From: a virus | Taxonomy: Duplodnaviria; Heunggongvirae; Uroviricota; Caudoviricetes | Virus record (IMG/VR): IMGVR_UViG_3300005715_000012 | Coordinates: 1-4,342 of that record | DNA: 4,342 nucleotides | Reading direction: 5' to 3' (one strand) | Part shown: one piece after another, positions 48-4,342 of the stretch | Numbering within the stretch: the stretch's first letter is position 1 | Layout of the letters: each line of letters begins with the position of its first letter | Notes under the pieces: model-generated | The model's database searches: none | Told to the model about the DNA's origin: nothing | Seen by the model: only the letters and a program-made list of their open reading frames with translations | Program-made: the position numbers and the translations under genes

Positions 48-548
48 ATGAACCTGACAACGAAGGGTGATTTAGTCCTTGCGGCATTACGTAAGCTCGG
101 TGTGGCATCAAATGCCACGTTAACCGATGTCGAACCGCAGTCTATGGAAGACGGCGTCAATGACCTTGAAATGATGATGGCTGAATGGCTTGGCGGTGAT
201 GCGTCACCTGGTATCAACGTTGGCTACATTTTTGCTGATGCAGATGTCGCTCCAGATCCGGGCGATGAGCACGGTTTATCAAATAACGCTATCAATGCCG
301 TCATTTTTAACCTTGCCTGCCGCATTGCTCCAGATTATGCGCTGGAAGCTTCTGCAAAACTTATAACCACTGCCAGATACGGGAAAGAGCGACTCGTCAA
401 ACTGCCTGCAATGGACAGAGCAAAAGCCGCTAAATGTAAGTCCGGTTATCCAAACCGTATGCCTGTTGGTAGTGGTAATCAGTTGGCGAAGTGGAACGGT
501 TGGAATTACTTCCACCGGAAGGAACCTTGCGATAACGGGAGCGAATAA
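48..548 (+). CDS. 4: Head-completion / portal-binding tail adaptor protein, homologue of P22 gp4 (166 aa)
   Basis: Complete ORF ATG 48 to TAA 546-548. AAGG at 35-38 lies 9 nt upstream of the start. The 166-aa length equals what I recall for P22 gp4, and the N-terminal motif [27 protein letters not shown] matches my memory of gp4. Sits immediately upstream of a gp10-like gene, as in P22. Not confirmed by search. Confidence 0.85.
537..541 (+). promoter_or_regulatory. Shine-Dalgarno for gene 10-like CDS (within the 3' end of gene 4)
   Basis: GGGAG lies 7 nt upstream of ATG 549. Confidence 0.6.
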
Positions 549-1967
549 ATGCCGATTCAGCAACTTCCGCTTATGAAAGGTGTCGGCAAAGACTTTCGAA
601 ATGCCGACTATATCGACTATCTGCCAGTGAATATGCTGGCTACACCCAAAGAAATCCTGAACAGCAGCGGATATCTTCGCTCATTCCCGGGCATTGCCAA
701 ACGATCTGATGTGAACGGTGTATCTCGCGGAGTCGAGTACAACATGGCGCAGAGTGCTGTTTATCGCGTGTGTGGCGGCAAGCTGTACAAAGGAGAAAGT
801 GAAGTCGGTGATGTTGCCGGAAGTGGTCGTGTATCAATGGCGCATGGTCGGACATCTCAGGCGGTAGGCGTTAATGGTCAACTGGTCGAGTATCGCTATG
901 ATGGCACGGTTAAAACCGTCTCAAACTGGCCTGCAGACAGCGGATTCACGCAGTATGAGTTAGGCTCAGTCCGCGACATTACGCGCTTACGTGGGCGTTA
1001 TGCGTGGTCAAAAGACGGAACTGATTCATGGTTTATCTCTGACCTTGAAGACGAATCGCATCCTGACCGCTACAGTGCACAATATCGTGCCGAGTCTCAG
1101 CCTGACGGAATCATCGGCATCGGAACATGGCGAGACTTCATCGTCTGCTTTGGTTCATCGACTATTGAATATTTCTCCCTGACTGGTGCAACCACTGTTG
1201 GTGCCGCGTTGTATGTCGCACAGCCATCGCTGATGGTGCAGAAAGGCATTGCCGGAACTTACTGCAAAACGCCGTTTGCTGATTCCTATGCGTTCATCAG
1301 CAATCCGGCAACGGGTGCGCCGTCTGTATACATCATCGGCTCCGGTCAGGTGTCACCAATCGCCAGCGCGAGCATTGAGAAAATACTACGCTCCTACACT
1401 GCTGATGAACTGGCTGATGGCGTGATGGAATCGCTGCGATTTGATGCTCATGAGTTGCTGATTATCCACCTTCCGCGCCATGTTCTCGTGTACGACGCAT
1501 CTTCAAGCGCCAATGGTCCGCAATGGTGTGTGTTGAAAACAGGCTTATATGACGATGTGTACCGCGCTATCGACTTCATTTACGAAGGCAATCAGATAAC
1601 GTGCGGCGATAAGCTGGAGTCCGTGACCGGAAAATTGCAGTTCGACATCAGCAGCCAGTATGGGCTACAGCAAGAACACCTGCTGTTTACTCCACTCTTC
1701 AAAGCAGATAACGCCAGATGCTTTGATCTGGAGGTGGAATCATCGACGGGGGTTGCTCAGTACGCCGACCGCCTGTTCCTCTCGGCAACCACTGATGGCA
1801 TCAATTACGGTCGTGAGCAGATGATTGAGCAGAATGAACCGTTCGTTTACGACAAGCGTGTTTTGTGGAAGCGAGTCGGGCGCATCAGGAAAAATGTCGG
1901 CTTCAAATTGCGCGTTATCACGAAGTCACCTGTAACTCTGTCTGGCTGCCAGATAAGGATTGAGTAA
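549..1967 (+). CDS. 10: Tail hub / head-completion protein, homologue of P22 gp10 (472 aa)
   Basis: Complete ORF ATG 549 to TAA 1965-1967. Its start directly abuts the upstream stop (TAAATG), with GGGAG at 537-541. The 472-aa length matches my recollection of P22 gp10. Position between gp4-like and needle genes fits P22-like synteny. Confidence 0.85.
1955..1959 (+). promoter_or_regulatory. Shine-Dalgarno for tail needle CDS (within the 3' end of gene 10)
   Basis: AAGGA lies 7 nt upstream of ATG 1967. Confidence 0.55.
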
Positions 1968-2815
1968 TGGCTGATTCGAATCTCAATGAGCCGGTAATCA
2001 CCCAGGCTACGCGGCTCGATACATCAGTCCTTCCACGCAATATTTTCTCGCAGTCATATCTGCTGTACGTTATCGCACAGGGTACTGATGTTGGTAATGT
2101 GGCTAACAAGGCCAACGAGGCCGGACAGGGCGCTTATGACGCACAAGTCAGGAACGATGAGCAGGATGTGATTCTTGTCGATCACGAAATTCGACTGGCA
2201 TCAGCTGAAGCTAAGATTCAGGACCACGAAACAAGGATCACTAACGCAGAAGCGGCGATAGTCGGCCTTGATTCACGATTAACGACAGCAGAAAACGATA
2301 TTGATTACCTGACGGATGAAGTTGTCGCCATTCAAAACACGCTTTCAGACCATGAAACGCGCATCGATGCTCTGGAGTATGCCACTACTCGCAAGAAGTC
2401 AGAGGTTGTTTACTCTGGCGTATCTGTAACCATCCCGACAGCGCCGACTAACCTTGTTAGCCTGCTGAAAACGCTCACGCCGTCATCCGGAACGTTGGCA
2501 CCATTCTTCGACACCGTTAACAACAAGATGGTTGTGTTCAACGAGAATAAAACGCTGTTCTTCAAGTTGTCTATTGTCGGGACGTGGCCCAGCGGAACCG
2601 CCAACAGATCAATGCAACTAACCTTTTCCGGCTCTGTTCCTGACACACTTGTGAGCAGTCGTAATGTGGCGACAACAACCGATAACATCCTGTTAGCTAC
2701 GTTCTTCAGCGTTGATAAAGACGGCTTTCTTGCCACAAATGGCAGCACGTTAACCATTCAGTCAAATGGTGCGGCGTTTACTGCCACAACCATCAAGATA
2801 ATCGCGGAGCAGTAA
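1967..2815 (+). CDS. 26: Tail needle (cell-envelope-penetrating plug), P22 gp26 family, long form with C-terminal knob domain (282 aa)
   Basis: Complete ORF ATG 1967-1969 overlapping the upstream TAA by 1 nt (TAATG); AAGGA at 1955-1959. N-terminus [38 protein letters not shown] matches the gp26 N-terminal hub-binding domain as I recall it. Central region has a coiled-coil character with a thrice-repeated DHE(I/T)R(L/I) motif. C-terminal ~140 aa is Ser/Thr/Val-rich and beta-like, consistent with an Sf6-type knob. The 282-aa length matches my recollection of Sf6 gp9. Confidence 0.85.
2806..2809 (+). promoter_or_regulatory. Shine-Dalgarno for gene 14-position CDS (within the 3' end of the needle gene)
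   Basis: GGAG lies 5 nt upstream of ATG 2815. Confidence 0.55.
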
Positions 2816-3270
2816 TGATTCAGTTCAAACCAACGCGAAACATCGACCTGATCGAAGCAGTCGGAAATCACCCTGACATTATTGCCGGAAGCAACAACGG
2901 TGATGGATACGACTACAAGCCTGAATGCCGTTACTTTGAAGTGAACGTGCACGGGCAGTTCGGCGGCATTGTTTACTATCATGAGATTCAGCCTCTGACA
3001 TTCGATTGCCACGCCATGTACCTGCCAGAGGTTCGTGGATTCAGCAAGGAAATCGGGCTGGCGTTCTGGCGATACATTCTGACTAACACCACCGTTCAGT
3101 GCGTCACATCGTTCGCTGCACGCAAATTTCGCCACGGTCAGATGTACTGCGCAATGATTGGCCTTAAGCGTGTCGGAACCATCAAGAAATACTTTAAAGG
3201 CGTGGATGACGTGACTTTTTACAGCGCCACACGCGAAGAACTAATCGACTTCCTGAATCACGGGAGATAG
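2815..3270 (+). CDS. 14: Protein at the P22 gene 14 position (poorly characterised virion assembly / infectivity protein), 151 aa
   Basis: Complete ORF ATG 2815-2817 overlapping the upstream TAA by 1 nt; GGAG at 2806-2809. Assignment is by synteny only (between needle and gp7-like genes, as in P22 order 4-10-26-14-7-20-16). I do not recall the gp14 sequence, so homology is unverified. Confidence 0.6.
   Translation: MIQFKPTRNIDLIEAVGNHPDIIAGSNNGDGYDYKPECRYFEVNVHGQFGGIVYYHEIQPLTFDCHAMYLPEVRGFSKEIGLAFWRYILTNTTVQCVTSFAARKFRHGQMYCAMIGLKRVGTIKKYFKGVDDVTFYSATREELIDFLNHGR
3262..3266 (+). promoter_or_regulatory. Shine-Dalgarno for gene 7-like CDS
   Basis: GGGAG lies 6 nt upstream of ATG 3273. Confidence 0.6.
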
Positions 3271-3272
3271 CC

Positions 3273-3965
3273 ATGTTATATGCATTTAAGCTGGGCAGAA
3301 AACTGCGCGGCGAGGAACCTTGGTGCCCTGAAAAAGGCGGGAAAGGTGGTAGCTCTGATAAAAGCGCAAAGTATGCAGCAGAAGCCCAGAAGTATGCTGC
3401 AGACCTGCAAAATCAGCAGTGGCAGACGATCATGAAAAACCTTGCTCCGTTCACGCCGCTTGCGGAGCAGTATGTTAACCAGCTTCAGAATCTTTCCAGT
3501 TTAGAAGGTCAGGGGCAGGCACTTAATCAGTATTACAATTCTCAGCAGTATAAAGACCTTGCAGGTCAGGCGCGTTACCAGAGTCTTGCTGCTGCGGAGG
3601 CTACGGGAGGACTTGGTTCGACAGCCACAAGCAATCAACTGGCTACGATCGCGCCGACTCTCGGTCAGTCTTGGTTATCAAACCAGATGAGCAATTACAA
3701 CAATCTGGCAAACGTTGGGCTTGGTGCTCTGCAAGGTCAGGCAAACGCCGGGCAGACGTACGCCAACAACATGAGCAGCATTGCACAGCAAAGCGCAGCT
3801 CTTGCCGCTGCTAATGCCAACAAACCATCAAGTCTTCAGACAGCAATTAGCGGCGGAACGTCCGGTGCGATTGCCGGTGCAGGTCTTGCCAGCCTTTTGG
3901 GAACATCAACACCTTGGGGCGCTGGCATTGGTGCTGGTATCGGATTGCTTGGCTCGTTGTTTTAA
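3273..3965 (+). CDS. 7: Ejection (injection / E) protein, homologue of P22 gp7 (230 aa)
   Basis: Complete ORF ATG 3273 to TAA 3963-3965; GGGAG at 3262-3266. N-terminus MLYAF.LGRKLRGEEP..PEKGGKGGS matches my memory of the P22 gp7 precursor. Has a Q/N/A-rich body and a Gly/Ala/Leu-rich hydrophobic C-terminus. Synteny supports the call. Confidence 0.85.
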   Translation: MLYAFKLGRKLRGEEPWCPEKGGKGGSSDKSAKYAAEAQKYAADLQNQQWQTIMKNLAPFTPLAEQYVNQLQNLSSLEGQGQALNQYYNSQQYKDLAGQARYQSLAAAEATGGLGSTATSNQLATIAPTLGQSWLSNQMSNYNNLANVGLGALQGQANAGQTYANNMSSIAQQSAALAAANANKPSSLQTAISGGTSGAIAGAGLASLLGTSTPWGAGIGAGIGLLGSLF

Positions 3966-3974: not shown

Positions 3975-4342
3975 ATGGCTACTTGGCAAGGATCAAATGG
4001 CGGATTGTTGGCTGGTATCGGCGGCGTCAACTCAAACGCTCCGAGCGTAAATGGCATCGGCAACACGCTTCAGCTTATCAGGCAGAACAATGATATTGAG
4101 CGTTCAGGCGCTAACAATGTTGGGCTGACAGCTTTGCAAGGTCTTTCTGGTATTGCGGGTGTTTTTCAGCAGAAAAAGCAGGCTCAGCGGCAGAAAGAAT
4201 TTCAGCAGGCATACGCTAATGCTTATGCGTCTGGTGATCGCGGTGCTTTGCGTCAGTTGGCTACTCAATATCCAGACCAGATTGAATCTGTTCGTAAAGG
4301 CATGGGATTCATTGATGAAGACCAGCGCACTTCTATCGGCAC
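3975..4342 (+). CDS. 20: Ejection protein, homologue of P22 gp20, 5' partial (first ~122 codons; continues beyond window end)
   Basis: ATG at 3975-3977 preceded by AGGGG at 3965-3969. Frame is open with no stop to the window end (translation MATWQGSNGGLLAGIGGVNSNAPSVNGIGNTLQLIRQNND...). Absent from the ORF track only because it has no stop in the window. Assignment is by position downstream of the gp7-like gene; sequence homology is unverified. Confidence 0.75.
   Translation, partial: MATWQGSNGGLLAGIGGVNSNAPSVNGIGNTLQLIRQNNDIERSGANNVGLTALQGLSGIAGVFQQKKQAQRQKEFQQAYANAYASGDRGALRQLATQYPDQIESVRKGMGFIDEDQRTSIG

Follow-up and report, generated by a model that had tools for sequence, protein, structure and literature searches.

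Among the three ejection proteins of P22-like phages, gp7 is described in the P22 and Sf6 literature as the smallest, and it is ejected ahead of the DNA at infection. About 12 copies of gp7 are present per virion, and the leader of the protein is taken off before assembly (Wu et al., PMC4992974). The P22 RefSeq record states for gene 7 [quoted passage not shown], and the N-terminus of a packaged P22 gp7 fragment was sequenced as Lys-Gly-Gly-Lys-Gly (Leavitt et al., PMC8402733). When P22 gp7 is made without its 20-residue leader, the burst is still ~60%, and residues 21-154 suffice for incorporation into the particle (PMC8402733). The amber fragment 21-154 is packaged, yet the mutant that makes it was obtained and employed as a non-permissive amber of gene 7 (PMC8402733), which argues for an essential post-assembly function in the last 75 residues of P22 gp7. 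The trans-envelope channel formed by gp7* (the mature form), gp20 and gp16 is about 50 nm long, and gp7 is regarded as its virion-proximal, outer-membrane part (P22/Sf6 literature). It was suggested that gp7 extends from gp10 (PMC10461980), and a preprint describes gp10 as the template for the assembly of gp7*, gp20 and gp16, gp7* being the first of the three (PMC13622523). Sf6 gp7 substitutes for P22 gp7 at full titre (PMC10461980); as Sf6 gp11, the protein has been listed as "gp14-like (OM)" (PMC8954989). Similarly, gp7 has been treated as an outer-membrane pore analogue of T7 gp14, and P22 gp7 is said, at second hand, to partition into lipid nanodiscs (PMC11445570).

The stretch of DNA analyzed here (the window; 4,342 nucleotides of a caudoviricete record in IMG/VR) comes from the late operon of a podovirus or prophage of the P22-like (Sf6-like) type; six co-directional genes were recognized in the window from open reading frames, Pfam and PHROG (Table 1). 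Their order, gp4-gp10-gp26-gp14-gp7-gp20, is the canonical P22-like order and is the one found in P22 and Sf6. The closest nucleotide matches of the window are the E. coli and Shigella phages Dewey, IME10 and Sf6, with 94-96% identity, and 1283 out of 5426 complete E. coli genomes carry P22-like late-operon DNA matching it, nearly always in the chromosome. No Rfam family was found in the window; between positions 3100 and 4100 there were no promoter-like sites, and terminator-like sites were no more frequent there than by chance. Short antisense and out-of-frame reading frames in and around the gp7 gene were considered and rejected as lacking support.

Table 1. Genes of the window and sequence features within and around the gp7 gene (positions of the window; codons of the gp7 gene).
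Feature	Positions	Strand	Codons	Basis or remark
gp4 adaptor	48-548	+		ORF, Pfam/PHROG
gp10 tail hub	549-1967	+		PF11134, E 1.1e-299
gp26 needle with Sf6-type knob	1967-2815	+		ORF, Pfam/PHROG
gp14 homologue (DUF2824), upstream neighbour of the gp7 gene	2815-3270	+		PF11039, E 8e-53; position as in P22 and Sf6
Shine-Dalgarno-like GGGAG	3262-3266	+		6 nt before the gp7 start codon; read from the sequence
gp7 / Sf6 gp11 ejection ("DNA transfer") protein gene	3273-3965	+	230 aa and stop	ORF, PF25688, PHROG 598
Leader MLYAFKLGRKLRGEEPWCPE	3273-3332	+	1-20	predicted OpdA/PrlC cut between E20 and K21; length and junction as in P22 gp7
KGGKGGSS linker, Gly/Lys-rich, flexible; would-be mature N-terminus	3333-3356	+	21-28	motif conserved in 102 representatives; P22 mature end KGGKG
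Ala/Gln/Asn-rich helical body, the family's conserved core	3357-3827	+	29-185	composition, AF2, Pfam profile matches of distant homologues
AEATGGLGSTATSNQLATIAPTLGQ, the family's most conserved motif	3594-3668	+	108-132	A110, G112, I126, P128, L130 invariant or near-invariant
First glycine zipper G194xxxG198xxxG202, uncharged	3846-3902	+	192-210	conservation in 102 representatives
TSTPW, probable turn between the zippers	3903-3917	+	211-215	Pro; alignment indels; position 210 tolerates Glu
Second glycine zipper G216xxxG220xxxG224xxG227 with near-invariant SLF end	3918-3962	+	216-230	conservation; best Wimley-White interface score
gp20 homologue, 5' part (second ejection protein), downstream neighbour, running past the window end	3975-4342	+		PF16928 Inj_translocase, E 1e-38; PHROG "released from the phage upon host infection"

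The gp7 reading frame consists of 230 codons between its ATG at 3273 and a TAA ending at 3965. The TAG stop codon of the gp14 homologue occupies 3268-3270, and the start codon of gp7 follows 2 nt after it, so that gp14 and gp7 are closely coupled. The frame differs from Sf6 gene 11 in 14 synonymous and 3 non-synonymous codons, which confirms both the reading frame and purifying selection on it. Residues 1-230 match positions 1-230 of the PF25688 (P22_gp7) profile with 445.9 bits (E 4.6e-134; the cut-off of the family is 28 bits), and the protein matches PHROG 598, "DNA ejection", with E 3.6e-100. NCBI already lists an identical protein of 230 aa, named "DNA transfer protein" and assigned to E. 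coli, whose cluster counts 1595 sequences. Sf6 gp11, also of 230 aa, is identical at 227 of 230 positions (98.7%; 97.4% nucleotide identity of the genes) and is flanked alike, by the gp14 homologue (gene 10) upstream and the gp20 homologue (gene 12) downstream. The three substitutions by which it differs are W17Y, G210E and G227S, the last two of which lie in the tail at positions tolerating change. P22 gp7 is 83% identical over its full length; it shares both glycine zippers and the C-terminal GLLGSLF with the window protein, which is one residue longer owing to an extra Ser in the linker and otherwise shows scattered substitutions. Taken together, the profile matches, the identity to the P22 and Sf6 proteins and the synteny uphold the initial reading of the frame as a gene-7-like ejection protein, and the conclusion that it encodes the P22 gp7 / Sf6 gp11 orthologue is firmly supported. 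The sequence strings quoted in the first-pass annotation (MLYAFKLGRKLRGEEPWCPE at residues 1-20, KGGKGGSS at 21-28 and ISGG...GSLF at 192-230) were all exact. It should be kept in mind that the processing, copy-number and ejection data belong to P22, and the window protein is known from its sequence.

Most of the protein is a body of unusual composition. Residues 31-190 comprise 19% Ala, 15% Gln, 11% Leu and 11% Asn. Against typical proteomes this is an enrichment of roughly 3-fold for Gln and Asn and roughly 2-fold for Ala, and the Leu content is ordinary; the enrichment of the centre in Gln, Asn and Ala noticed at first sight was thus real, and that in Leu was not. An AF2 monomer model built with 34 close homologues had a mean pLDDT of 40 and was unusable. 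With 49 sequences including distant members, the mean rose to 64.5, and only the helical core was confident: helices were drawn at residues 28-75, 77-88, 91-111 and 117-183, with pLDDT >90 at residues about 80-130. Part of this region is taken up by the motif AEATGGLGSTATSNQLATIAPTLGQ, whose conservation was judged in alignments of 45-49 sequences, some of them at 23-36% identity to the window protein. Searches for known structures gave little: phmmer against the PDB returned chance matches to ricin-type lectins alone (E >= 0.27), and Foldseek against the PDB with the second AF2 model found no match at E < 1.

The gp7 family is small; at 50% identity it makes up 197 clusters in a set of 1.84 billion representatives. 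One of the more remote relatives, P0169 (34-38% identical to the window protein), is still encoded within a P22-like module, between gp10-like and gp16-like genes. The distant members (22-36% identical) match the PF25688 profile only from position about 22-28 on and lack the charged leader. Instead, residues 1-20 of these proteins hold 0-3 charges, average about -0.1 to +1.7 in hydropathy (at least +0.6 in most) and show many small-xxx-small spacings. Their C-terminal tails measure 20-36 residues in most cases, versus 39-46 in the P22-like group. Only the P22-like subgroup has the ~20-residue leader and its E|KGG junction. This distribution suggests that the gp7 family may contain two layouts of one kind of small-residue hydrophobic element.

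The tail of the window protein (residues 191-230) contains no charged residue and is 30% Gly. The GxxxG/AxxxG spacing noted there by the first-pass annotation was confirmed and is strengthened by conservation: it comprises two GxxxGxxxG runs whose glycines are 93-100% conserved. Among 102 cluster representatives, G198, G202, G216, G220 and G224 are 100% conserved, G227 and F230 each 99%, and G194 93%. The off-register glycines vary, with 41% for G195 and 54-68% across alignments for G218 (68% in the 102 representatives). The segment 191-214, its zipper glycines aside, varies more than any other part of the protein, and within the tail conservation is highest over the last 15 residues, with a majority fraction of 0.88. 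On a helical wheel, the conserved glycines of each zipper cluster within 80 degrees. Shuffling the tail of this single sequence places the spacing barely above what composition gives (p=0.044 for small-xxx-small and p=0.13 for GxxxG); it is the conservation of the glycines at i, i+4 and i+8, while their neighbours vary, which indicates that the spacing is more than chance. Position 210 is Glu in 25% of the representatives and in Sf6, and alignment indels fall in the following residues, so that 211-215 fits a turn between two short helices. The AF2 model assigns the tail a pLDDT of 39-47 and draws a short, low-confidence helix at 216-226. Compared in isolation with the Pfam family Gly-zipper_YMGG (PF13441), the tail reached 16.8 bits (E 0.0056), a weak match below the gathering threshold of 28.9 bits, and its membership of a Pfam Gly-zipper family was rejected.

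The maximum of the tail's 19-residue Kyte-Doolittle average is 1.28, and no segment of the protein attains the threshold of 1.6. On the translocon scale the tail scores about +4.4 to +5 kcal/mol, on the Wimley-White octanol scale a marginal -0.6, and on the Wimley-White interface scale -4.0, the best of any segment in the protein; the numbers on these three scales are approximate. A first suggestion had been to look for a transmembrane or amphipathic helix at residues 190-230, and the outcome is divided: the region falls short of a classical transmembrane helix (1.28 versus 1.6), and it is the most interface-active segment of the protein. We infer a membrane or oligomerization role of the tail from its sequence in qualified terms, since the classical thresholds are failed and the interface score alone is the best. 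Such a membrane role fits the nanodisc partitioning and the outer-membrane placement of gp7 in the literature. The most specific form of the proposal is that the double glycine zipper at 192-230 is a hairpin that would insert into, or seal against, the outer membrane as ~12 copies of gp7 assemble on gp10, within a family of two alternative layouts: the distant members would carry the small-residue hydrophobic element N-terminally together with a short C-tail, and the P22-like subgroup would have swapped it for a charged, protease-removable leader and a longer C-tail. In this combined form the proposal is doubtful.

It is quite possible, although on balance not what we expect, that the tail is no membrane element at all and serves purely in protein-protein packing or docking, within the gp7 ring or on gp10 or gp20, or that it is a flexible, low-bulk tail easing passage through the portal and tail channel. 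The transmembrane thresholds that the tail does not reach speak for this, as does the strong conservation of its last 15 residues, which is expected with a fixed protein partner. It has also been argued that gp7 varies little because it touches the highly conserved gp10 and not the cell envelope (PMC10461980), and templating by gp10, as described in the preprint cited above (PMC13622523), points in the same direction. However, no segment other than the tail is entirely free of charge, none partitions so readily to the interface, and the gp7 protein reportedly partitions into nanodiscs (PMC11445570). Packing between subunits, moreover, overlaps with the oligomerization half of the reading preferred here and does not exclude it.

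Much less probable is an arrangement, modelled on the C-terminal signal of outer-membrane proteins, in which WGAGIGAGIGLLGSLF, the final 16 residues with Phe at the end, would be an amphipathic beta-strand whose one side is lined by Gly and which contributes to a beta-barrel-like or amyloid-like outer-membrane pore. Gly does occur at every second position from 216 to 224 in the window protein, the terminal Phe is among the most conserved residues of the tail, and many distant members also end in aromatic or hydrophobic residues (GLF, GGF, NWI, GYI). However, the i+2 glycine G218 is variable when compared to the set at 216, 220 and 224, and AF2 drew the short helix mentioned above. With the i+4 glycines invariant and the i+2 glycine not, the helical register is favoured over the strand. 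The C-terminal beta-signal of outer-membrane proteins follows the pattern polar-x-G-x-x-hydrophobic-x-aromatic. The IGLLGSLF end does not fit this pattern, and a beta-signal is disfavoured there: the terminal Phe is present, but Ser stands at -3 and Leu at -6.

At the other end of the protein, the leader has 4 K/R and no acidic residue within its first 13 residues, and 4 K/R and 3 E across residues 1-20. The description of the N-terminus as basic thus holds for the first 13 residues, and over the whole leader the character is only weakly basic. The mean Kyte-Doolittle value of the leader is ~ -0.5, and 7 of its 20 residues are charged. A Sec-type signal peptide was ruled out on these grounds, as the hydrophobic core of ~10 or more uncharged residues that it needs behind a basic N-region is missing. 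In both AF2 models the leader has pLDDT <50, and in the second the low values cover residues 1-26. The [K/G]GG[K/G/S] motif begins after 17-22 residues in 102 of 102 cluster representatives, and the leaders preceding it in these close relatives are of several unrelated kinds (MLYAFK..., MLIFQI..., MLVLSE..., MHFAMT..., MAIGNI...). The statement in the first-pass annotation that about 20 residues are removed in an OpdA-dependent step is right for P22 (RefSeq record; PMC8402733; PMC4992974), and the alignment with P22 gp7 that it called for shows the leader length of 20 residues and the junction PE|KGGKGG to be the same in both proteins. Since both match the sequenced P22 site, cleavage of the leader in this phage is strongly indicated by homology, at the level of sequence. 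It is hardly credible that the leader stays on in this phage and host as a functional segment or as a signal for secretion or membrane targeting: the unrelated leader types among close relatives mean that processing need not be universal, but the junction is identical to the sequenced one, the leader is not Sec-like in charge, hydropathy or core, and the OpdA orthologue PrlC is present in E. coli and Shigella. The nearly identical Sf6 protein, in addition, functions in P22 grown on Salmonella (PMC10461980).

Considering the above, the following sequence of events can be proposed for the window protein. The host oligopeptidase OpdA/PrlC would trim residues 1-20 from the precursor before assembly, and the disordered leader and Gly-rich linker would let the enzyme reach the scissile bond. 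Mature gp7, in ~12 copies, would be packaged into the procapsid via the region corresponding to residues 21-154, a step for which the tail would be dispensable. At infection gp7 would be ejected first and would then oligomerize on gp10, where the tail would be needed for channel function. The tail would fold as a helix-turn-helix, and the glycine faces of this zipper hairpin would pack helices tightly between subunits and/or sit at or in the outer membrane. We put the probability of the account as a whole, namely a gp7 orthologue of a Lederbergvirus-type, Sf6-like phage or prophage of E. coli or Shigella, acting by the steps known from P22 and Sf6 and by those proposed here, at roughly 85%.

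The gp7 gene of the window is thus a correctly recognized, well-characterized and ordinary phage gene; neither the protein nor its role nor the clipping of its leader is new. The term "glycine zipper" was not found in the searchable literature naming both P22 and gp7. In the full text of the 2026 preprint on the in situ structure of P22, "transmembrane" occurs six times and "outer membrane pore" four times, and "glycine" does not occur (PMC13622523). The zipper description of the tail hence adds, at most, a small point of annotation. The leaderless distant members with a hydrophobic, small-residue-rich N-terminus are a minor addition and slightly new. The conserved glycine register of the tail offers precise mutagenesis targets for the channel-forming step, and the in situ structures now appearing for the P22 channel may be easier to read with the distinction between the leader-bearing P22-like members and the distant, N-terminally hydrophobic ones in mind.

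Beyond P22 and Sf6, two known systems invite comparison. T7 gp14 (internal virion protein B, the outer-membrane pore of the T7 ejectosome) is a helical protein of 196 aa, versus 230 aa for the window protein, and in the literature it is the functional analogue of gp7 (PMC8954989; PMC11445570). Like gp7, it is encoded by the first of three consecutive ejection-protein genes; the window protein is likewise small and has gp20 directly next to it, as in T7 gp14-like three-gene ejection clusters. Demonstrable homology was rejected on profile comparison, as matching T7 gp14 to the profile of the gp7 family in hhalign gave a probability of 0.2%, and a structural match of the gp7 model to T7 gp14 was not recovered. 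The functional analogy from the literature can be kept, and given that neither sequence nor structure matches, the likeness is a functional and positional one and not demonstrated common ancestry. The second comparison is with transmembrane glycine-zipper motifs and the Pfam Gly-zipper families of the YMGG, OmpA and Omp types. The gp7 tail differs from these in being insufficiently hydrophobic for a classical transmembrane helix. It resembles them in its GxxxGxxxG runs with conserved glycines on one face, of which gp7 has two, parted by a turn within an uncharged segment.

At least five unrelated leader sequences are found among the close relatives of the gp7 orthologue (at least 70% overall identity), e.g., in the database homologues P0045, P0058, P0077, and P0099. 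Every leader type of these close relatives has a length of 17–22 residues and is followed by a KGG/GGG motif. Judged from sequence, the gp7 leader looks like a swappable module, in which the length and the junction are conserved but the sequence is not. The leader of the window protein also contains the sole cysteine of this protein, Cys18, placed in the context PWCPE, and the predicted leader processing would take it away. Residue 18 is variable across gp7 relatives, being Cys, Tyr, Phe, Trp, His, or others.

The charged leader is absent from gp7-family members that are 22–36% identical to the window protein (P0169, P0191, P0196, P0204, and others; alignment A4 with distant homologues). Their N-terminus is an uncharged hydrophobic segment rich in Gly, Ala, Ser, and Val, and their C-tails are mostly shorter, frequently ending with GLF, GGF, NWI, or GYI. 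One of the distant members (locus L003, 6001–6672) is located within a P22-like module, coat-gp4-gp10-gp7-gp16. In several other database entries (P0003, P0059, P0067, and P0084), the C-terminal part of gp7 is fused to pieces of other proteins, namely the N-terminal part of a needle, the coat domain of P22, gp14, or a replication protein; such fusions probably stem from prophage decay or from errors in assembly or gene calling.

Coordinates of the features discussed (window positions)
Feature	Position	Observation
gp4 gene region	1-542	No match in Sf6
Start of blastn alignment to Sf6	543	
gp4/gp10 junction	548/549	Genes directly adjoin
gp10/gp26 junction	1967	Stop/start codons overlap by one base
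Needle gene (gp26)	1967-2815	Mosaic
P22 similarity in needle gene	~2169; ~2813	Ends; restarts
gp26/gp14 junction	2815	Stop/start codons overlap by one base
gp14 homologue (DUF2824 gene)	2815-3270	Next to gp7 gene
gp14/gp7 junction	3270/3273	Gap of 2 nt
Region corresponding to leader types of close relatives	3273-3356	MLYAFK..., MLIFQI..., MLVLSE..., MHFAMT..., MAIGNI...
Cys18 codon	3324-3326	

The late genes follow one another with almost no spacer, which suggests that their translation is coupled along the operon. Concerning the gp14 homologue, the term “gp14” does not appear in the full text of the 2026 P22 preprint (PMC13622523); the abstract of this preprint mentions four ejected internal proteins for P22 and names only gp7* (mature gp7), gp20, and gp16 as channel components.

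The tail-needle gene has a mosaic structure relative to P22: similarity to P22 is interrupted within it, and the C-terminal part corresponds to the Sf6-type knob (PF16532), not to the P22 needle tip. The gp4 gene region lacks a counterpart in Sf6, whereas it does match phages Dewey and IME10, which marks the place where gp4 meets gp10 as a junction in the mosaic.
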